Shown here: positions 54,999 through 64,000 of the stretch, piece after piece
Position numbering within the stretch: the stretch's first letter is position 1
Layout: each line of letters starts with the position of its first letter
Source of the DNA: an archaeon
GTDB lineage: Archaea; Nanobdellota; Nanobdellia; Woesearchaeales; GCA-2686295
Reading direction: 5' to 3'
Assembly: GCA_043822105.1 (NCBI GenBank)
Contig: JBDRCD010000010.1
Location: forward strand, 86,685-150,684
DNA: 64,000 bases
The notes under the pieces: model-generated
What the model saw: the letters and a program-made list of their open reading frames with translations, nothing else
What the model was told of the DNA's origin: nothing
Databases searched by the model: none
Translations under genes and position numbers: made by a program

Positions 54999-57065
54999 TT
55001 ATATAAAGGTTGTTTTTTTCACGACTAAAGTTGCAGTGTTATCGTTCTCTTCATTGATTGAAAATTTATCTATTGTTATCTTTTTTTTGAAAATCGGACC
55101 ATCCAGAACCAATGTTTCAAATTCTCCGCCTTCACCGGCTATGTTTAGATCTACTTTTTTCTTCAGTTCAACGAGTTTGTCAATCATATTGTCATCTATT
55201 TCTTTGTTGAGCCAGCTTTTATTGAGACCCTCTGCAGCGACTTTTGTCATTATGCATTTGAATCCTTCTCTTACTATTTCTCTCATTTCTGTTTCCTGAT
55301 TAATGTGCCACAAAGGGGAGAATATCTTAAGTGACAGTTCGTCGCATATCTTTTCCACTCTGTCTCTTTGATAGTTTGAAAACAATGCGCCTGTGACAAC
55401 TCCTTCAATTTTATACTCCTTTTTTGCTTTTTCTATGGCTTTTTTTAGATCAACCAGTTCTTTTTCTTTTTCTCCTTTTGTCTCCTGAATGATTAAAGGT
55501 ATGCCCATTGACTCTGACTGTAGTTTGACCATTTCTATTGTGGGCGTGTGAAACATGTAGGAATCCGGATTCTCGCTTTTTAATGTGATAAAACATCCCA
55601 CTTCATAGTTCTGCTTCATCATTGTATAGGCTGCGTAAACACTGTCTTTACCAGAGCTTAGAAGTGCCCCTAGTTTGACATTATGCAAAGGATAAAATTT
55701 TCTCAGATAATCTGATTTTCTATCAAACTTGTTCTTATTGGTAAGTTTTTGTATTGCTTTGTGAAAGTTTGAGCCGTACTGTGCTGCTTTCTTTTTTCTC
55801 ATGGCGAATTCTTCCTTCAATCCGAGATTCAAAGCGACGAGTCTCAGTATGTATTTTTCATGTCCGTCTGTTAATTTATACTTCTCTGGTATTTTCAAAG
55901 AGTAGTCTATGAGTTCTTTGTCTAGAAGCGGGAGTCTTAGTTCTGTTTGATTATACATGGTTACAACGTCGTCTCTATAAAGGTCTCTCTCGTACATCTT
56001 TAGAAGCCCTGAAACGCATTCCTTGTTGATGTTTGTGGATTCCTTGTGTCTTTGATAGCCTGCGAATATTTCTTCGCTGCCAAGACCTGAGAACATCACT
56101 TTTACTCCGTCTTTTCTTGCTTCTTCACAGGCGGCGTAGAATGGAAGCGCGACGCCTACTTTTACAACGTTTGAATCCTCTATTAGTGGAACTATTTTCT
56201 TTAGATATTTTTCAACGTCTGAAATTTTTATCTTTACAATTTTCAGGTCTAACTTTAGATCCTTTGCAATTCTTTTGGCGTATGATAGGTCCTGAGGTTC
56301 TTTTAGTCCTGGATCGTCTAAGACTGCTGTGTAGCAGGTGAATTTTTGTCCTAGTTTTTTTAGAACCAAAGCAAGAACCGTTGAATCGATTCCTCCTGAG
56401 AACAGTATTCCAAATTTTACATCAGGTATTCTCTTTGCTATGGCTGATTTTATTTTTATTTCTACTTCTCTGGCAATTACTTCTATGGAGTCTCTGTGTT
56501 CTGGTTCTATTGAAAAAAACTTTCTGTCTTTGAATGTGATTGAATCATCTTCTGTGTTGTATTCTAGTATTTTTCTCGGATTAAGCTCGTTTATGTCCAG
56601 AATGCCTATTTTTTCAAGTGCTTTTTTTTCAGATGCGAAATGGAACCCTTTTGTGTGGCTGTACCACATTGGTTTTACTCCTATGATATCTCTTGCAAGG
56701 AATAGTTTGTGTCTTTTTTTGAAAGCTAGTGCGAAAACACCATCTAATTCATTTAAGGATTCTTCATTGACACCTTTCTTTTGCATTAGTTTGAAAATTA
56801 CTTCTGCATCGTTTCTTGCTTTGAATTTGTATTTTTTGTTGAGTTCTTTCCAGTTGTAAACTTCGCAGTTGACAACCATTAGTTCATCGTCCACAAATGG
56901 TTGTTCTACATGTCCGACCATTGCATGCAGGCAGTGTCCAAAAGAGAACTTTTTCCCTTCAAAAAAACCTTTTCCGTCCTTTCCTCTGTTCTCTAAAACC
57001 TTTAGACCATCCTTTACAAGTTTCATTGAATTCTCTCTTTTGAAAACACCGATTATTCCACACAT
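54999..57065 (-). CDS. AsnB-like glutamine amidotransferase/synthetase fused to diphthine-ammonia ligase (Dph6)
   Basis: MCGIIG (Ntn Cys), ARDIIGVKP, FSGGIDS and GSEEIFAGY, then LSSGKDS, SYMFH and GEGGEFET. Confidence 0.88.
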   Translation of the reverse strand: MCGIIGVFKRENSMKLVKDGLKVLENRGKDGKGFFEGKKFSFGHCLHAMVGHVEQPFVDDELMVVNCEVYNWKELNKKYKFKARNDAEVIFKLMQKKGVNEESLNELDGVFALAFKKRHKLFLARDIIGVKPMWYSHTKGFHFASEKKALEKIGILDINELNPRKILEYNTEDDSITFKDRKFFSIEPEHRDSIEVIAREVEIKIKSAIAKRIPDVKFGILFSGGIDSTVLALVLKKLGQKFTCYTAVLDDPGLKEPQDLSYAKRIAKDLKLDLKIVKIKISDVEKYLKKIVPLIEDSNVVKVGVALPFYAACEEARKDGVKVMFSGLGSEEIFAGYQRHKESTNINKECVSGLLKMYERDLYRDDVVTMYNQTELRLPLLDKELIDYSLKIPEKYKLTDGHEKYILRLVALNLGLKEEFAMRKKKAAQYGSNFHKAIQKLTNKNKFDRKSDYLRKFYPLHNVKLGALLSSGKDSVYAAYTMMKQNYEVGCFITLKSENPDSYMFHTPTIEMVKLQSESMGIPLIIQETKGEKEKELVDLKKAIEKAKKEYKIEGVVTGALFSNYQRDRVEKICDELSLKIFSPLWHINQETEMREIVREGFKCIMTKVAAEGLNKSWLNKEIDDNMIDKLVELKKKVDLNIAGEGGEFETLVLDGPIFKKKITIDKFSINEENDNTATLVVKKTTFI

Positions 57066-57267
57066 AACTTTATAGAAAGGAAATCTTTTTAAAAATGTTA
57101 GTGTATTATACAGAATTATGAAGTGGACTTGGAATCATACGATACTGTTGGTAATTGTTTCAATTCTACTAACAATAGTGCTGTACATAGTTTTTCATAT
57201 ACTTTTGATATTGATTCTTTTCATTCCACCAATTGTGATGTTGAAGCATATGAAGAAGTAAATTATT

Positions 57268-58125
57268 TTAGAAAGTGGCGAGATAAGTTTTTGGTTTTAC
57301 TTCTTCTATTTCGACTGTGAATTTAGGTATGTTGTTGGGAGGATTAAATTCAATCTTTAGGTATTCAGGTACAATTATTTCTCCTGAACCATTTTTTTCT
57401 ATTCTGGCACTCATTTTGGCATTATCAGCCCACATTGTTTCTGGAAAACCATTAAAGTTAGTGGAATATTCGACTGTATTATTTTTTAAAACCTTTTTTT
57501 TCACGTGAATGCTATGCACTTTTCCTGCGTATGCAAATTGTACATCTCCTTCCAAATTGTTTCTAAGTATGGACATGAAAATATCATTTACAATCATAGT
57601 GTTTTCCGGCAGATATTTTCCTACGTTTAACTTCTTTTCTTCAATTAGTTTCATCTCTTTTTTTGTTGGATTGTAGTCGCTGTCAATGTTATATGAAACA
57701 ATTTTATAGATTCCTGACTCATTTTGTTTAACAACTATATTTTCCCATGTCTGTTTTGAATTAAGGGTGTTTCCTTCTTTCTCAAAAATGAAATCTTTCT
57801 TTCCTAGTTTTAATGGTCCAACTTTTAAATATGCTTCAGCATTTATTAATGAATAAAGTTTGTTCACAACTATATCTATGAATCCTATTGAAACTTTGAA
57901 TGGTTTTGTTATCTTCATCTTGAATTTTTGGGAATAGTTATCGAATGTTTTATTGTATTGAGAATTTGTAATTGATCCTAAATCAATTTCTTTTGCAGAA
58001 GCAATTTCTGAACTTGATTTAGATGTAGGTATCTCATTCTTTGCAGCATACAGTGTCTGTCCTTTGACTTGAGAACTAAGTGCCAGTACTACTGTGGTTA
58101 ATGTTAAAGCTGCTTTTGCTTTCAT
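57268..58125 (-). CDS. Hypothetical exported protein
   Basis: Signal peptide ending VKG-Q. Confidence 0.6.
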   Translation of the reverse strand: MKAKAALTLTTVVLALSSQVKGQTLYAAKNEIPTSKSSSEIASAKEIDLGSITNSQYNKTFDNYSQKFKMKITKPFKVSIGFIDIVVNKLYSLINAEAYLKVGPLKLGKKDFIFEKEGNTLNSKQTWENIVVKQNESGIYKIVSYNIDSDYNPTKKEMKLIEEKKLNVGKYLPENTMIVNDIFMSILRNNLEGDVQFAYAGKVHSIHVKKKVLKNNTVEYSTNFNGFPETMWADNAKMSARIEKNGSGEIIVPEYLKIEFNPPNNIPKFTVEIEEVKPKTYLATF

Positions 58126-58127
58126 CT

Positions 58128-59027
58128 CTACATCCTCGTCGTGTAATATGGTCCGTAGAGGTTGCCAGTCATTTTTACTAGACTGGCAAGATTGTATATT
58201 AGATACAGCTCTTTCCTCTCCACAGTTCCCATTAGTTTCTCTGCTCTTTTCCCTAATTCCTTTTTCTTTTTTTGAAATTTTGAAGCGTTTTCCTTATCAA
58301 ACTTGTAGAATAATTTATGAAACCTTGAGAAGAACTCGTTTGCTTCCCTGTATAGCTCCATTGTTTCTTTTCCTGGTACAAATGAGTTTTCCATCATGTA
58401 TGTGCTCATTTTTTCATAGTGGTCTGCAATCTTCTCTAAATCCCTGATTATTACGTAGTAGAACTGCGTCTTGTTGTGGTCTTTGTGGCCTTTTTTGTTC
58501 AGTACTCTTTTGCAGAAGTCTGTGAATTTGTCGACGCTGTTTTCCAGAGATATAACTCCTTTTAATCTTGTTTTATCCTTGTTTTTTATTGCTTCTAAGC
58601 TGTTTTTTCCCATCTCTTCTATGAGGTAGTACACTCTTCGGAACATGTTCTCAAACTGTTCTTCAAGCTCTACAGACACATTCTTTATTTCTACATGATT
58701 TTCTCCCTGGTCTATTATCTCGTAGCCCATGAGGTCCGGCAGTTTTTCCTGCAGTTTAGAATATATTTCCTGGTCTTTGTAGTTGACTCTTATTTCATCA
58801 ACTCCTGCCTGGTATAGGTATGCAATATATAGTGGATTAAAATCTTCTTCTGCGTCTATGATTACTTTTTTGCTCTCTTTTGCTTTTTCTGTGCTGACTG
58901 TGAGACTTTTTTCTTCCAGTTCTACGTCTAGTTCGTCTCCTTTTTGAATATTGTTTTGTTTAACCCATTTGCTTGGTAATGATAGAACTATTGTCTTCCC
59001 TGCTAGCTGTATTGCTCGTCTCTTCAT
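58128..59027 (-). CDS. AbrB-PhoU phosphate uptake regulator
   Basis: RAIQLAG...SLPSKW (AbrB), then VDKF and DLEKIADH (PhoU). Confidence 0.88.
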   Translation of the reverse strand: MKRRAIQLAGKTIVLSLPSKWVKQNNIQKGDELDVELEEKSLTVSTEKAKESKKVIIDAEEDFNPLYIAYLYQAGVDEIRVNYKDQEIYSKLQEKLPDLMGYEIIDQGENHVEIKNVSVELEEQFENMFRRVYYLIEEMGKNSLEAIKNKDKTRLKGVISLENSVDKFTDFCKRVLNKKGHKDHNKTQFYYVIIRDLEKIADHYEKMSTYMMENSFVPGKETMELYREANEFFSRFHKLFYKFDKENASKFQKKKKELGKRAEKLMGTVERKELYLIYNLASLVKMTGNLYGPYYTTRM

Positions 59028-59194
59028 TGTCGTTTCTACTCTCTGTTTTAGCTTTTCTACTATTTAAACATTTCGTTTATTATATAATTATATAGTACTA
59101 TATATATTATATGCATAAATTATATATCTTTTTTTCCGGTAATAGTAATTGTTTTTCCGAAAGAAACGAAAAACAAATGAAAAAGGTGATGGCA

Positions 59195-59653
59195 ATGGAT
59201 AAAAAAGATATAATGTTTTTAGCACACTTAAGAAACAACGCAAGAGAAACACTGACAAAGATAAGCAAGAAGACACACATACCAATATCAACGCTCTACG
59301 ACAGATTAAAGCTGCATGAAGGTGACATTATAACAAAGCACACAACACTAATAGACTTTGCAAAGCTAGGGTATTTATGCAAAGCAAACATTACAATAAA
59401 GGTTGATATTGAAGATAGAGACGCAGTTAGAGCATATTTGTTATGTCAAAACAATGTGAACTCTCTGTTCAAGATCAACAACGGCTATGATTTTTTGATA
59501 GAAGGAGTATTCAAACACGTAAAAGAGATGGAAGACTTCATGGAAACCTTTGAGAAGAAATACAGAGTTTTGGAAAAGAATGTATACTACATAATTGAAG
59601 ACCTGAAAAGAGAGAGTTTTATGGCTGAGACAGAAAATGTGAGTGTTGTATAA
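59195..59653 (+). CDS. Lrp/AsnC transcriptional regulator
   Basis: LRNNARETLTKISK...STLYDRL and IDFAKLG; GGTGA RBS upstream. Confidence 0.9.
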   Translation: MDKKDIMFLAHLRNNARETLTKISKKTHIPISTLYDRLKLHEGDIITKHTTLIDFAKLGYLCKANITIKVDIEDRDAVRAYLLCQNNVNSLFKINNGYDFLIEGVFKHVKEMEDFMETFEKKYRVLEKNVYYIIEDLKRESFMAETENVSVV

Positions 59654-59729
59654 CGAAACGACGAAAGCTTTTTCTTCGATCAGTTATAATATCAAAAGAT
59701 TTATATCTTTATAATTTTTTTTACATAAA

Positions 59730-60917
59730 ATGAATTTTCATATTAATGGAAAAAATGTGAAAATAATTTTTAATTATAATAATTATTCTAAAAGAAAGTA
59801 TAGAAATGACTTTAAAGATTTCTTAGATTATCACACAAAAAGGGAGGAAAAAGACCCTGAGCAAGTTAGACAATTTGATTTAAAAAGAATTTTTTATAAA
59901 GAATTTCAAACAATTCCTTATAAAGGACTTGCAGCATATTTATCTGAAAGGTATAGCTATGAATTTTTCATGAAAACTGCTAATTATTTTTTTATTAAAA
60001 TACTTGAAAAAGTACTAAATGATTATCCAAAGATAATTACTTCTGAGGAATTTGAAATTCAAGTTCAAGTGATAAGGATTGTAAGAAGAGAATATTATGG
60101 GGCTTATGATCCCGAACCATCTGATAAAGATCATGCGTATATTGAGTTTAATGCTGTATGGGTTCTTAATAACATAGTTATGCCTTGGGCACTTTATAAG
60201 AAGATAAATTATCAACTGATATATAAATTTCTAGTGCATGAACTTTATCATCATGTTGATAATATAGCGGAAGCTTTTATTTATGAAGACAAACTAGAAG
60301 ATAAATTAAAATTGAAATCTAAAAAGATATCTAATTATGGAGTTTTATTCCTTTTTTCTGTATTATTTGAGTTGAGGGCAGAGGGTTTTGCAGAATTCGC
60401 TTCAAGAAATTCAAATCGTTTTGAAATAAACAAGAATAAAATATTAGAATTTAAAAAAAATCTTTGGATCCTTGTTACTAAAAGAAAAAAAGCAGATGCA
60501 GAATATTTCTTTAATAAAAAATTATCAACAGAATCCTATGCAACTTATTACTCTGGAAATCTTATGTGTTTTATAATAGCATTATTCTTTTGTAAAAATG
60601 TTACGAACCAACCTAAAATTATATTTGATGGAAAAGAATTTCCCATAATTGATTTAAATAGACTAATTGACACAAAAAAAACTGTTTCGATAATGGGAAT
60701 GCCTAGGGAGATTTATCAAAAAACATTATCATATGTGAACTCGATTGGGCCTGCGGAATTCTTAAATATGTATAATCATGCATGTGATCATTTAGAAATA
60801 TCATATGACAATCGAGTTTTATGGTGGAAAGAATTTATTAAGTTAAAAAAGAAGACAACAGAAATTTATGAAGCCGATAGATTAAAAAAAGTCATCAAAA
60901 AAGGATATACTATATAA
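59730..60917 (+). CDS. Hypothetical HEXXH metalloprotease-like protein
   Basis: LVHELYH...AEGFAEF (gluzincin-like); very AT-rich. Confidence 0.65.
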   Translation: MNFHINGKNVKIIFNYNNYSKRKYRNDFKDFLDYHTKREEKDPEQVRQFDLKRIFYKEFQTIPYKGLAAYLSERYSYEFFMKTANYFFIKILEKVLNDYPKIITSEEFEIQVQVIRIVRREYYGAYDPEPSDKDHAYIEFNAVWVLNNIVMPWALYKKINYQLIYKFLVHELYHHVDNIAEAFIYEDKLEDKLKLKSKKISNYGVLFLFSVLFELRAEGFAEFASRNSNRFEINKNKILEFKKNLWILVTKRKKADAEYFFNKKLSTESYATYYSGNLMCFIIALFFCKNVTNQPKIIFDGKEFPIIDLNRLIDTKKTVSIMGMPREIYQKTLSYVNSIGPAEFLNMYNHACDHLEISYDNRVLWWKEFIKLKKKTTEIYEADRLKKVIKKGYTI

Positions 60918-60965
60918 CCTCAAAATTAAATGATGCTGTACTTCTTATAATTTATTTTTTTACCC

Positions 60966-61142
60966 TTATTTTTTAGAATAAATTATGTATTCAATAATTA
61001 ATGTGAACAACGGAAACAGAATACTCAAAACAATAGAAGTATCTTTTCCTATATTAGTTGTTCCTAAAATGAAGAATAGAATTAATCCTAGAGTGATTGC
61101 TTGTAAGATTCCAAAAATGTAAAAAATGTTATTATTTTGCAT
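60966..61142 (-). CDS. Small two-TM protein (58 aa; below the ORF-track cutoff)
   Basis: Manual translation MQNNNIFYIFGILQAITLGLILFFILGTT...FTLIIEYIIYSKK. Confidence 0.55.
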   Translation of the reverse strand: MQNNNIFYIFGILQAITLGLILFFILGTTNIGKDTSIVLSILFPLFTLIIEYIIYSKK

Positions 61143-61195
61143 AATGTTAGATTAATTTCTTATGTATATAAAACTTTCGTCAGGGCAAAAATGAA

Positions 61196-61223
61196 ATTGA
61201 ACATAATTCCTGTTAGTTTCTTT
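61196..61223. repeat. dif/att-like site A
   Basis: ATTGAACATAA-TTCCTG-TTAGTTTCTTT. Confidence 0.75.
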
Positions 61224-61399
61224 GACCCTACAACGTGGGGTCAAATTTCGTCCGAAAAGTTCAGAAAACGGCCGTTCATCCACGGAGCGAATGCGACACA
61301 TAAATTTAAACAATGAAGGGCAAGGGTTATTCATTATTGTATCTAAATAGTAGTAACAAAATAGAAAGATTTATAAATCTATTATTATCTGCTATTGTT

Positions 61400-61957
61400 A
61401 TGTTAGATACTGGATTTCATTATATGAGCGAAAGAAGATGGAATGAATTAAATCATGATATAAATGATTCTAAAGTCATCAAACCTGGAAGAAGATTTGT
61501 GAGATTAAGAAGTATTGCAGATCCAGATATTCCTAAATTGCCAGATTGGGCACATGATGGTTATATTTTTGCATTTCCAGATAAAGAAGCACCAGAACCT
61601 TGGAAAGGATATGAACATTGGAAGGATGAATGGGACATTTTAACTGGAGATATTGGAGAAAAAATAGTGGGTGTAAGGTTTGAGATTCTTCCATCAGATG
61701 AGGCATATGTTGTAGATAGAGCACATCATGCAGATTTTCAATGGAAACACAATGGAGATAGACAAGATGCAATTAGAAAATATGCTTTATCAAGAGTTCC
61801 TGCAAGCGAATATGATGGAAGTTTTAGAATGCCAGAATTACTAATAAGAAATCCAATAGACTTAGAAAGATTAATACAACATAGTGCATTTACAAGAGAT
61901 ATAGTTAGAAATAATGGTGAATGGACTATCGAATATAAGCCCAGCCCTATAGACTAA
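61400..61957 (+). CDS. Hypothetical protein (cargo of module 1)
   Basis: ORF lies between sites A and B; start moved to ATG 61400. Confidence 0.65.
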   Translation: MLDTGFHYMSERRWNELNHDINDSKVIKPGRRFVRLRSIADPDIPKLPDWAHDGYIFAFPDKEAPEPWKGYEHWKDEWDILTGDIGEKIVGVRFEILPSDEAYVVDRAHHADFQWKHNGDRQDAIRKYALSRVPASEYDGSFRMPELLIRNPIDLERLIQHSAFTRDIVRNNGEWTIEYKPSPID

Positions 61958-61973
61958 TTAGGTCGTTTTCTGA

Positions 61974-62001
61974 ATTGAAACTAATCCTTGTTATATTCTT
62001 G
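61974..62001. repeat. dif/att-like site B
   Basis: ATTGAAACTAA-TCCTTG-TTATATTCTTG. Confidence 0.75.
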
Positions 62002-62089
62002 AGGCTTTTTTTTTAAGCCGAAACAAGAAACCGTAGGTTTCGCAGAGTAACGCCCAAGAGTTTGTAATTTTTTAACTCTAAAAGGCGTT

Positions 62090-62117
62090 ATTGAATATAA
62101 TCCTTGTTATATGAGGG
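62090..62117. repeat. dif/att-like site C
   Basis: ATTGAATATAA-TCCTTG-TTATATGAGGG. Confidence 0.75.
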
Positions 62118-62193
62118 TGAGCGAAGCGAAAGGCTACAAGCCGTCCCCGAGGATTTGCGAAACAAACCGCAGAGTTGAGAAAAGGCACTTAAA

Positions 62194-62421
62194 TTACTTA
62201 TTTTTTATTTCATATAATTTATTTCTTATAAATGAAAATCTGAATACACATAAGAAAAAAAACACAAATAAAAACCCTACCAAAACCAGCTTACTAATTA
62301 GAGTATTTCCAAATATTATTTCATTTATCTCGCTTGTAATTAATAATATACTTACAGTTATTCCTCCAATGAGTGAGAGATATAAATTCTTAGAATCTTC
62401 TGGGTCTAATGGCCATTTCAT
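62194..62421 (-). CDS. Small two-TM protein (cargo of module 3)
   Basis: ATGA overlap with the upstream lipoprotein gene. Confidence 0.6.
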   Translation of the reverse strand: MKWPLDPEDSKNLYLSLIGGITVSILLITSEINEIIFGNTLISKLVLVGFLFVFFFLCVFRFSFIRNKLYEIKNK

Positions 62422-62810
62422 TTTATTTGTAAACAATTAGATTTTATGAAATTACCTTCTTTATCAAATTCAACTGAATAACTAAGGTCTAATTTTTCTT
62501 TGATTGAACCATCCTGATTTAGAACAGTTTTATGTAATTTTGCACTATTTATTCCAGAAGAGTATCCACAGTAATAATGATCAGGAAATTCGCCTTGATT
62601 TGTACCCATTCTACATTTAGGAGTATTAAATTCAACTTTCCAATCAGCTATTTCTTTTGGCAATACTGCAAATGGAGATTGCATACTTGACCCTTCATTT
62701 AAAGTTGCATTTGTGATTGGACATTTAACATCATTGATTATACTAATGTCATTAACATTACATCCTGTTAGTAAAATCAAAAAAAAAATTAAAAGCATTA
62801 TTTTTTGCAT
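62418..62810 (-). CDS. Putative lipoprotein (cargo of module 3)
   Basis: LLTGC lipobox. Confidence 0.7.
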   Translation of the reverse strand: MQKIMLLIFFLILLTGCNVNDISIINDVKCPITNATLNEGSSMQSPFAVLPKEIADWKVEFNTPKCRMGTNQGEFPDHYYCGYSSGINSAKLHKTVLNQDGSIKEKLDLSYSVEFDKEGNFIKSNCLQIK

Positions 62811-62875
62811 AATTGTGATTTATAATGGATATTTAAATAATTATTGTTTTGTTAAGGCTTAAGTGCCTTTTCTCA

Positions 62876-62903
62876 ATTTCGTTTAACCCTTGTTATATTC
62901 TTG
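62876..62903. repeat. dif/att-like site D
   Basis: ATTTCGTTTAA-CCCTTG-TTATATTCTTG. Confidence 0.7.
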
Positions 62904-62992
62904 AGGCTTTTTTTTAAGCCGAAACAAGAAACCGTAGGTTTCGCAGAGTAACGCCATAAAAATTTCTAATTTTTAAATGAAATGTTGGCGTT

Positions 62993-63020
62993 ATTGAATA
63001 TAATTCCTGTTAGTTTCTTT
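62993..63020. repeat. dif/att-like site E
   Basis: ATTGAATATAA-TTCCTG-TTAGTTTCTTT. Confidence 0.75.
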
Positions 63021-63198
63021 GACCCTACAACGTGGGGTCAAATTTCGTCCGAAAAGTTTTTTCGGGGGCGTATTCCATCAAGCGAACACAGTGAGCCATC
63101 AAGAATAAACATCAAGGGGCAATTTTCAGTTCGTCGTTTCGTAGGGGGAAATTCCGAGTCCTATCGGACAGAGTGCTTTTTTCTGCGGAAAAAGAAAT

Positions 63199-64000
63199 TT
63201 ATAAAAATTCTTTCAAATATTTTCCTGTATAGCTTTTCTGGCATTTAATCAATTCTTCAGGAGTTCCTTCAAACAAGATTTCTCCACCCTTAGAACCTCC
63301 TTCAGGGCCTAAGTCTATAACCCAATCAGCATGTTTAACAACATCAAGGTTATGCTCAATTACAATTACAGTATTATCATTATCAACCAGATTTTTTATT
63401 ATTTTCATTAATTTGTCAATATCTGCCATATGCAAACCTGTTGTTGGCTCATCCATAACATATATATTTCCTTTTTTGTGTAGTTCAGATGCCAGTTTGA
63501 TTCTTTGGCATTCTCCACCAGACAATGTGCTTAATGGTTGTCCAAGTTCTAAATAATCCAGACCCACATCACATAAAATTTGTAGTTTTCTTTTAATTTC
63601 TTTATTCTCAAAAAAATCAACTAGCTCCTTAACAGTCAGGCTCAAAATATCAAAAATACTTTTTCCATTATACTTTAATGCTAAAACCTTTTCAGTATAT
63701 CTTTTTCCATTACATTCGTCACAAGTAACTTTGACTTCATCCATAAAACTCATTTCATAGCTTATTGTTCCGAGCCCCTTACATTTAGGACATGCTCCTT
63801 TTGAATTGAAACTAAACAGGGCAGGATTTGTGTTGGTTGCGTCAGCGAATTCTTTTCTTATTAAGTCGAAAACTCCTATATAAGTCGCTGGATTAGAACG
63901 GGAAGATTTTCCAACTGGAGATTGGTCTATAATAATTGCATCTTTATTCTCTTTTACAAAAATATCATTTATCAAACTACTTTTTCCTGAACCTGCAACT
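63199..64000 (-). CDS. UvrA-family ABC ATPase, C-terminal part (possibly UvrA2/DrrC-like)
   Basis: VAGSGKSSLI at the window edge, RSNPATY, CPKC...CDEC, LSGGECQR, DEPTTGLH and IEHN. Confidence 0.9.
   Translation of the reverse strand, partial: VAGSGKSSLINDIFVKENKDAIIIDQSPVGKSSRSNPATYIGVFDLIRKEFADATNTNPALFSFNSKGACPKCKGLGTISYEMSFMDEVKVTCDECNGKRYTEKVLALKYNGKSIFDILSLTVKELVDFFENKEIKRKLQILCDVGLDYLELGQPLSTLSGGECQRIKLASELHKKGNIYVMDEPTTGLHMADIDKLMKIIKNLVDNDNTVIVIEHNLDVVKHADWVIDLGPEGGSKGGEILFEGTPEELIKCQKSYTGKYLKEFL

Follow-up and report, generated by a model that had tools for sequence, protein, structure and literature searches.

What are the two short gene-less modules near the right-hand end of a 64,000-nucleotide (nt) stretch of woesearchaeal DNA (contig JBDRCD010000010.1, positions 86,685 to 150,684; the whole stretch is referred to as the window), which share one scaffold, enclose different inserts of about 30 nt and alternate with units that carry genes? 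The analysis described here indicates that the modules, named E1 and E3, are probably copies of a non-coding mini-cassette within an integron-like array of gene cassettes, the junctions of which are of the archaeal Xer/dif type. They are discrete multi-copy units with the ends of the gene cassettes and the whole conserved cassette scaffold. Their layout, in window coordinates, is as follows.

61985-62100, plus strand: E1, gene-less module of 116 nt, delimited by direct reading, global alignment and fold
61985-62019, plus strand: E1, spacer (61985-61990), arm TTATATTC (61991-61998) and hairpin GGCTT-T-run-AAGCC (62003-62019)
62027-62083, plus strand: E1, hairpin GAAACC/GGTTTC (62027-62041), AGT and clamp AACGCC (62046-62054) and core (62055-62083)
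62084-62100, plus strand: E1, clamp GGCGTT and ATT (62084-62092) and arm GAATATAA (62093-62100)
62887-63003, plus strand: E3, gene-less module of 117 nt, scaffold as in E1, core 62956-62986
62987-63003, plus strand: E3, clamp GGCGTT and ATT (62987-62995) and arm (62996-63003)

Direct reading and global alignment agree with most of what a sequence-only reading had reported of these modules. The stretches 61986-62054 and 62888-62955 differ solely by one T in a T-run (T9 vs T8), the last 17 nt, GGCGTTATTGAATATAA (62084-62100 and 62987-63003), are common to the two modules, and the cores measure 29 nt (62055-62083) and 31 nt (62956-62986). The coordinates given for the identical stretches stand, although the unit itself begins one base earlier, at 61985 and 62887, where the first base of the spacer is T in E1 and C in E3. 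The alternation with gene-bearing units is also borne out: E1 lies between E0 (61207-61984) and E2 (62101-62886), and E3 between E2 and E4 (from 63004). The scaffold is identical at 86 of 86 positions, far beyond chance, and its only copies in the whole 1.17-Mb genome are those of E1 and E3, 902 nt apart. Neither module holds an open reading frame (ORF). An assembly error, which had been considered as the source of the duplication, is unlikely because the two copies, on one contig, differ in flanks and cores. The region 62029-62180 is bridged without differences by one 152-nt metagenome contig, possibly from the source sample itself. No joint removing E1 or E3 was found in the metagenome contigs (three DNA runs with 5-7% of the sampled words), whose coverage is mostly of the 5' domains and of the segment that follows the 5' domain of E4, and which are uninformative on the remainder.

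Both modules have dif-like sites on both sides. These are direct 28-mers in which a 6-nt spacer separates two 11-nt arms; five of them lie in the window and a sixth beyond it (C10 being the contig), ahead of a recombinase gene.

61196-61223, plus strand: site 1, left boundary of the array, ATTGAACATAA TTCCTG TTAGTTTCTTT
61974-62001, plus strand: site 2, E0/E1, ATTGAAACTAA TCCTTG TTATATTCTTG
62090-62117, plus strand: site 3, E1/E2, ATTGAATATAA TCCTTG TTATATGAGGG
62876-62903, plus strand: site 4, E2/E3, ATTTCGTTTAA CCCTTG TTATATTCTTG
62993-63020, plus strand: site 5, E3/E4, ATTGAATATAA TTCCTG TTAGTTTCTTT
C10:152298-152325 (window position 65614, beyond the window), plus strand: terminal (sixth) site, ATTGAGTTTAA CAACAT ATATGCGCATT
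C10:152513-153370, plus strand: array-proximal tyrosine recombinase, 285 amino acids, about 215 nt downstream of the terminal site

No site was found upstream of 61196, even at a lower threshold. The experimentally used dif oligonucleotide of Pyrococcus abyssi reads ATTGGATATAA TCGGCC TTATATCTAAA in the available text of its description (PMC2958812). The left arms of three of the window sites agree with it at 10 of 11 positions, and the E1/E2 site does so at 18 of 28 positions overall. A motif search of the genome gave three exact matches, at this locus only; the E1/E2 site is among the matches with two mismatches, the other 14 of which are scattered through the genome.

The organization of a cassette was defined by cutting 21 loci at their sites, namely the array of this genome and 20 fetched arrays, many of which end at contig ends, to yield 95 cassettes. 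A cassette, with or without a gene, has the spacer at its start and the TAA of the left arm at its end. E0 and E4 both begin with TTCCTG, that is, the spacer travels with the downstream cassette, and the crossover would therefore take place at TAA|N6 on the top strand. The elements follow each other in a fixed grammar: spacer, right arm, folded 5' domain, AGT, a private inverted repeat (the clamp) around the cargo, ATT and left arm. The full grammar is present in 47 of the 95 cassettes, and E1 and E3 are built in this way. The proposal of the sequence-only reading that they may be minimal or empty cassettes is thus supported, as they are bounded exactly by the sites of gene cassettes and keep every non-coding element of a cassette. 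Other short gene-less cassettes, of 79, 97, 98, 120 and 128 nt, occur in other arrays, one of them with a three-base clamp loop.

Several features tie the two ends of a cassette together. The five variable arm positions are all complementary in 35 of the 95 cassettes, while shuffled pairings gave a mean of 5.9 and a maximum of 14 (2000 shuffles); within one site, full complementarity between the two arms was seen in 10 of 74. An inverted repeat of at least 11 bp abuts the left arm in 40 of the 78 cassettes of at least 400 nt, with AGT preceding it in 38 of these 40. When the anchor was shifted by 25, 40 or 60 nt as a control, 8, 4 and 5 cassettes, respectively, reached 11 bp, none with AGT. 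The clamp helix has a median length of 13 bp and is nearly all Watson-Crick, its interruptions being four G-T and one A-C; in the arms the G-T and A-C mismatches number 18 and 9. As a guide to which strand folds, both asymmetries are too small in number. With AGT and ATT able to pair via a G-T wobble, arm, triplet and clamp would make up a continuous helix of some 22-28 bp from which the 5' domain branches off. The two arms of E1, and likewise those of E3, are complementary at 8 of 8 positions, and GCAGAGT is followed by a clamp of 6-7 bp (9-10 bp with AGT/ATT). The predicted folds of E1 (minimum free energy -32.2 kcal/mol, z -3.64) and E3 (-31.8 kcal/mol, z -4.33) consist of four helices, the arm, two hairpins and the clamp, exactly as the grammar leads one to expect.

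The 5' domains fall into several classes. For class A, which comprises E0, E4 and 11 others, 7 of 12 pairs have compensatory changes and 96.8% of the cells are paired, a covariation score reached by none of 500 shuffles; slid controls were 23-64% paired, and two hairpins are supported. One-sided (G-U) intermediates were found in none of the 12 class A pairs, and this, together with the near-perfect clamps, fits pairing at the DNA level better than pairing in RNA.

The arrangement recurs across the order. The site pattern is present in 89 of 401 genomes (a tally that takes in two genomes flagged unpublished), and a reversed control pattern in 16. All 116 sites in the 21 loci are co-oriented within their locus, with none on the other strand and 2-12 sites in each. 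Matches to the recombinase (E 1e-40 or better) were obtained in 221 of the 401 genomes, ten of those counted being flagged unpublished. Among 18 genomes, none flagged unpublished, with a recombinase of about 42% identity or more and with gene and site on one contig, the recombinase is encoded downstream, at 0.25-7 kb from the sites and on their strand, in 17 (G000, G006, G017, G030, G046, G106, G115, G118, G157, G178, G247, G264, G277, G287, G297, G326 and G344; only G394 departs from this). In 17 of 22 genomes (survey loci L087-L106) a terminal site whose right arm is ATATGCG-like is found about 160-245 nt before the start of the recombinase match, and this site has the look of a primary, attI-like point of insertion for the platform.

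The array-proximal protein has archaeal XerA (NF040815) as its top family, with 201.5 bits, below the cut-off of 220. The canonical XerA, encoded on contig C11, scores 263.3 bits and passes that cut-off. Both proteins pass PF00589; they are 34% identical, with 12 extra residues inserted in the N-terminal domain of the array-proximal one. Among solved structures, the latter comes closest to IntI4 (2a3v, E 7.7e-35, in two stretches) and, with a near-equal score, to P. abyssi XerA (4a8e, E 3.8e-34).

The inserts of E1 and E3 had been described as unrelated, and this was not confirmed. The core of E3 can be aligned with its counterparts in three sister modules from the congeneric genome G006 (shuffle p = 0.0008, 0/5000 and 0/5000), and the E1 and E3 cores match at 19 of 32 alignment columns (shuffle p from 0.02 to 0.12, depending on gap scoring). 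Alignment of the inserts as diverged copies of one ancestral sequence had been named beforehand as the outcome that would speak against different inserts in one scaffold; it is what was observed for E3 and, weakly, for E1. Sister modules number six in G006 and one in G008, of the same genus, and no match was found in three further genomes of the genus (G001, G002 and G007). In the three genomes that have them, the same clamp and a related core stand behind four different 5' domains. The cores form two subtypes, AAAAATT(T)-TCT-(A)AATTTTTAA in E3 and four G006 copies, and TTTAGTTTTTTTAA(A)CTAAA in two G006 copies and G008; the E3 version, AAAAATT-TCT-AATTTTTAAA, is both palindromic and TATA-like. 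One 116-nt sister module of G006, which starts with TGTCGG in all copies, has constant ends behind three different neighbors, one of these junctions being the terminal site beside the recombinase gene. Among the 95 cassettes, only E1/E3 and the d/f modules of G006 are pairs that share at least a quarter of their 12-mers.

In E1 and E3 the clamp closes on an AT-rich hairpin of 29-31 nt instead of genes. What had been called the "insert" is thus the tip of the clamp hairpin, a member of a small genus-specific family. Within this genome, the contrast between 0 mismatches in 86 scaffold positions and a core difference of about 40% is best explained by modular exchange or conversion of scaffolds, as is also seen in E0 and E4, which have a common 5' domain; the occurrence of clamp plus core behind four different 5' domains points to modular exchange as well. 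With such exchange, capture of foreign DNA is not needed to explain the contrast, and the suggestion that these were newly formed cassettes that had captured short sequences finds no support, the cores being diverged copies (strongly so for E3, weakly for E1).

A related sequence was noted in the G006 flank before its first site. The stretch L054:2200-2263 resembles the 3' half of a module (TTTTTCTAAATTTAAAC...GGCGTT ATTGAATATAA) and is devoid of the 5' clamp arm; it may be a module in truncated form; alternatively, the left boundary of the array may be where the modules came from.

A mechanism can be proposed in which the XerA-like recombinase encoded beside the array would insert and excise cassettes at TAA|N6. 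The mini-cassettes would then be non-autonomous hitch-hikers, able to multiply in arrays because the full recombination structure is retained, and their relation to the cassettes could be likened to that of miniature inverted-repeat transposable elements (MITEs) to transposons. Several observations weigh against the reading of E1 and E3 as mini-cassettes moved in this way. Neighboring sites often differ in their spacers (TTCCTG, TCCTTG, CCCTTG), and a classical two-strand Xer reaction would consequently be blocked; a double-stranded circle of 116 bp is in addition sterically difficult, as judged by the spacing limits of Cre/loxP. No excision, insertion or presence/absence polymorphism was observed in the data examined, and the recombinase is tied to the sites by conserved neighborhood alone. 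The module family is present in only three of six genomes of the genus, and the E1 core is its outlier, with a weak likeness to the others (p 0.02-0.14). A metagenome scan for the conserved module end returned 13 loci, of which four are from one assembly matching G006 and nine, judged by their flanks, are chance matches inside genes, with nothing else credible. Folding is about as good for the minus strand of E1 (z -4.95) and of E3 (z -4.22), so that folding by itself identifies neither the strand nor the molecule. Finally, the finding that only gene-less cassettes are duplicated is biased, since long duplicated cassettes would break assemblies.

A folded single-stranded DNA substrate is suggested by the combination of heterologous spacers in neighboring sites, a fixed crossover edge, a continuous helix and units of 79-128 nt, which agrees more with one-strand exchange of the integron or CTX kind than with the classical duplex Xer reaction. 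We tentatively propose, as a possibility well short of an even chance, that the array is an "inside-out" analogue of an integron run by the XerA paralogue, in which the recombining molecule would be a folded single strand with the cargo inside the hairpin. The stem of the folded strand would combine the AGT/ATT triplet and the private clamp with both site halves that belong to the cassette. Exchange would involve a single strand, at TAA|N6, and replication would then resolve the product. The 116-nt gene-less modules would represent the natural minimal substrate, consisting of the recombination structure only, and would for this reason multiply in arrays.

Of the other explanations, the one that survives best is that E1 and E3 are regulatory cassettes, in which the core would be an outward promoter with a transcription factor B recognition element (BRE) and a TATA box, and the T8/T9 hairpin would stop incoming transcription, the modules being retained by selection for these functions. 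This is compatible with mobility, and we consider it rather unlikely. The core sequence (C/T)TAA-TTTTT(T)AA(A/C) resembles TATA-like boxes located 32-39 nt upstream of tRNA genes of this genome, such as GTTAA-TTTTATAAA upstream of tRNA-Met and tRNA-Leu. The box begins 30-36 nt before the cassette end in seven modules, so the start site would fall in the left arm, and it is conserved between E3 and the G006 modules despite their different 5' domains. A plus-strand TATA-like box at such a distance was found in only 1 of 78 gene cassettes, which makes the feature specific to the gene-less modules and led us to reject an outward promoter as a general property of cassette ends. Gene-less integron cassettes with promoter activity are also on record in the available text of two papers (PMC6557892, PMC11014356). 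On the other hand, TATA-like strings are common at about 35% G+C, and this one sits in an A/T palindrome and may simply be the tip of the hairpin. The first gene of the downstream cassette is on the opposite strand in three of five cases, some modules precede another module, and E2 itself contains a TATA-like box, some 30 nt ahead of its start codon. As for termination, T-runs are also present in the first hairpin of the sister modules, and a gene on the same strand precedes only three of six modules. In the G000 genome (90.7% complete, 19 contigs), 19 tRNA genes were found by ARAGORN with default tRNA settings, which may miss intron-bearing or split tRNA genes.

It is improbable that the modules encode a structured small RNA some 116 nt long and folded as a four-way junction, with the dif-like 28-mers as nothing more than its conserved ends. 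Such an RNA would agree with the stability of the module folds (z -3.6 and -4.3) and with the covariation of the related class A 5' domain. The opposite strand nonetheless folds equally, and covariation and clamp pattern point to pairing at the DNA level; furthermore, identical ends bound cassettes whose genes are in either orientation (65 plus, 67 minus). A scan of 56000-64000 against Rfam with E up to 10 returned eight weak matches, none near its gathering score, and no family could be assigned (the best, wcaG, reached 20.6 bits vs a gathering score of 42).

We regard it as very improbable that the modules are the outcome of a simple local duplication or of faulty assembly, or a MITE belonging to an element driven by a transposase, as two near-identical copies 902 nt apart and 8-nt ends forming inverted repeats might suggest: the ends of the copies coincide to the base with the junction sites of all other cassettes, the sister modules of two other genomes keep these ends in different surroundings, and there is no target-site duplication, although no search aimed at transposases was made. 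Canonical integron attC sites or empty integron cassettes, as in clusters of attC sites lacking integrases (CALIN) of the kind reported for archaeal genomes, are hardly to be credited. The resemblance lies in a tandem array of accessory genes beside a tyrosine recombinase with IntI4 as its best solved relative, and in a clamp that reads AAC...GTT, but that protein scores below the cut-offs of the integron-integrase models (187.6 vs 265 bits for TIGR02249, 115 vs 435 for NF011946) and, at 285 amino acids, has no room for the extra IntI domain, and the junctions, inspected by eye, are 28-bp 11-6-11 sites with the cargo inside the hairpin, no bias in ORF orientation and no Rfam match. CRISPR, tRNA-like, ribozyme (the hammerhead-like GGC...GCC GAAAC) and archaeal bulge-helix-bulge structures were dropped by eye, with no support from Rfam and with bulges that misfit.

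The gene-bearing units that alternate with E1 and E3 contain the following features.

61207-61984, plus strand: E0, gene cassette of 778 nt, class A 5' domain 61207-61260 ending in AGT
61261-61273 and 61961-61973: 13-bp clamp arms of E0, followed by its left arm (61974-61984)
61313-61957: E0 ORF, 214 amino acids, no Pfam match
62101-62886, plus strand: E2, gene cassette of 786 nt, class B 5' domain ending in CGCAGAGT, 17-bp clamp TGAGAAAAGGCACTTAA / TTAAGTGCCTTTTCTCA
62418-62810 and 62194-62436, both minus strand: E2 ORFs, 130 and 80 amino acids
63004 to beyond 64000, up to the terminal site, plus strand: E4, last unit, class A 5' domain
63199 to beyond 64000, minus strand: ABC-ATPase gene of E4, 751 amino acids in the contig, Pfam ABC_tran, apparently UvrA-like

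The E0 arms, TTAGTTTC and GAAACTAA, are perfectly complementary. The regions 61196-61261 and 62993-63058 are 98% identical over 66 nt, a stretch that runs from the preceding left arm through the 28-mer site and on to the AGT at the end of the class A 5' domain, and the cargoes of E0 and E4 are unrelated despite this common 5' domain. The far left arm of E4 (GAGTTTAA) does not match its right arm, and E4 consequently looks as if its 5' part had been replaced by a copy of that of E0. A long inverted repeat around the ABC-ATPase gene of E4 was considered and rejected, its alignment score of 34 not being significant (shuffle maximum 36). The segment 63053-63201 of E4 is matched at 85-95% by many short contigs of three metagenome runs, with a summed depth of up to 119 per bin; most of these contigs continue into unlike sequence and there is no Rfam match. 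It is a putative conserved non-coding element.

Orientation and cargo were surveyed in 93 of the 95 cassettes, the two longer than 4.5 kb being left out. The 132 ORFs of at least 60 amino acids show no bias in orientation, 65 being on the array strand and 67 on the opposite one. According to Pfam, seven of the 132 encode NUDIX and three ParE proteins; further cargo includes PIN, HEPN with nucleotidyltransferase, restriction-modification, GNAT, HAD and other proteins, and many ORFs have no match. In the G079 array (L055) five consecutive cassettes each contain a pair of ORFs of 75-96 amino acids; matches to ParE and DUF2683 suggest that these are putative toxin-antitoxin pairs, comparable to those of the chromosomal integrons of vibrios. 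The cassettes L054:8778 (G006) and L056:1352 (G174), from genomes of two different families, have an identical 59-nt 5' domain (GTCTGACCAACGGG...TTTTAGAGT), and their clamps and cargo differ; it would seem that 5' domains either spread horizontally or are strongly conserved. Outside the array, the minus strand of the window at 54999-57065 carries a 688-amino-acid ORF with glutamine amidotransferase, asparagine synthase and C-terminal diphthamide-synthase (Diphthami_syn_2) domains.

If E1 and E3 are indeed mini-cassettes of an Xer-type array, small archaea would run a second, independently evolved cassette-capture system, derived from the chromosome-resolution recombinase family, whose cargo of toxin-antitoxin pairs, NUDIX hydrolases, restriction-modification genes and acetyltransferases would parallel what bacterial integrons carry. 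The 116-nt modules would be its most tractable experimental handle, as they contain every conserved non-coding element and nothing else; one synthetic oligonucleotide could address cutting at TAA|N6, the preference for a folded single strand and the requirement for AGT/ATT and clamp. The gene-less modules may also inform on the birth of cassettes.

No description of dif-type cassette arrays in archaea was found in the literature on Xer/dif, XerA, archaeal and DPANN cassettes and integron-like arrays, as far as it is contained in the papers themselves. The array system is apparently unpublished and can be considered a variant of known cassette and Xer systems. In integrons, each cassette has attC at its 3' end, an imperfect hairpin (R''-L''-L'-R') measuring 57-141 nt, with the crossover at G|TT. 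The attC hairpin follows the cargo, whereas here, by eye, the hairpin encloses it; integron ORFs are mostly co-oriented from the platform promoter, whereas here they are unbiased. The cargo does resemble that of chromosomal integrons. Similar to integrons in their presumed mode of working, the arrays, with the integrase cut-off not reached, no attC architecture discernible by eye and unbiased orientation, are most probably not members of the integron family. As far as the available text of the archaeal integron paper goes, it deals with canonical attC and IntI (PMC9668308). Gene-less (ORF-less) cassettes, some with promoters, occur in chromosomal integrons according to the accessible portions of two reports (PMC6557892; PMC11014356, bioRxiv 10.1101/2023.11.21.568050). 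They are the nearest analogue of E1 and E3. Like these, they are short non-coding units that fill a full slot in an accessory array beside a tyrosine recombinase; the modules described here differ in having 28-bp dif-like junctions and in that the whole module is one fold closed by the recombination arms.

The archaeal Xer/dif system of chromosome-dimer resolution shares with the array the 11-6-11 site, a near-identical left arm (ATTG-R-ATATAA) and a recombinase of the XerA family. It has one dif site per chromosome, while here there are five direct sites and a terminal one, and up to 12 sites in other arrays. In the Thermococcales dif does not adjoin xerA, according to the available text (PMC2958812), whereas here cassette-specific arms lie beside a XerA paralogue that scores below the equivalog cut-off. 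The many direct sites and this paralogue argue that this is not a plain dif system.

Integrative mobile elements exploiting Xer (IMEX) represent another related group. Known examples, such as the CTX, TLC and VGJ phages and the gonococcal island, are several kb long and have replication or transfer genes, and the CTX phage integrates as folded single-stranded DNA with exchange of one strand, a mechanism that we also suspect for the array. IMEX exploit Xer recombination and integrate at dif (see also PMC5357621 and PMC9226527). As in the array, elements with no recombinase of their own accumulate in tandem at dif-like sites and are separated by them, and E1 and E3 formally fit the IMEX definition, their integration by Xer being likely rather than observed. 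The units of the array differ in that their lengths lie between 79 nt and a few kb, that they share one non-coding grammar, are in some cases gene-free and have an archaeal host. In pdif modules the sites flank the module in inverted orientation, whereas all the sites of the 21 loci are direct. These modules of Acinetobacter plasmids are small, bounded by Xer sites and thought to be mobilized by Xer, as described in the available text (PMC7399989). MITEs, lastly, resemble E1 and E3 as non-coding, multi-copy minimal derivatives with only the ends needed for mobilization in trans; in E1 and E3, by contrast, the ends are halves of a tyrosine-recombinase core site, target-site duplications are absent and copies occur only within the array.

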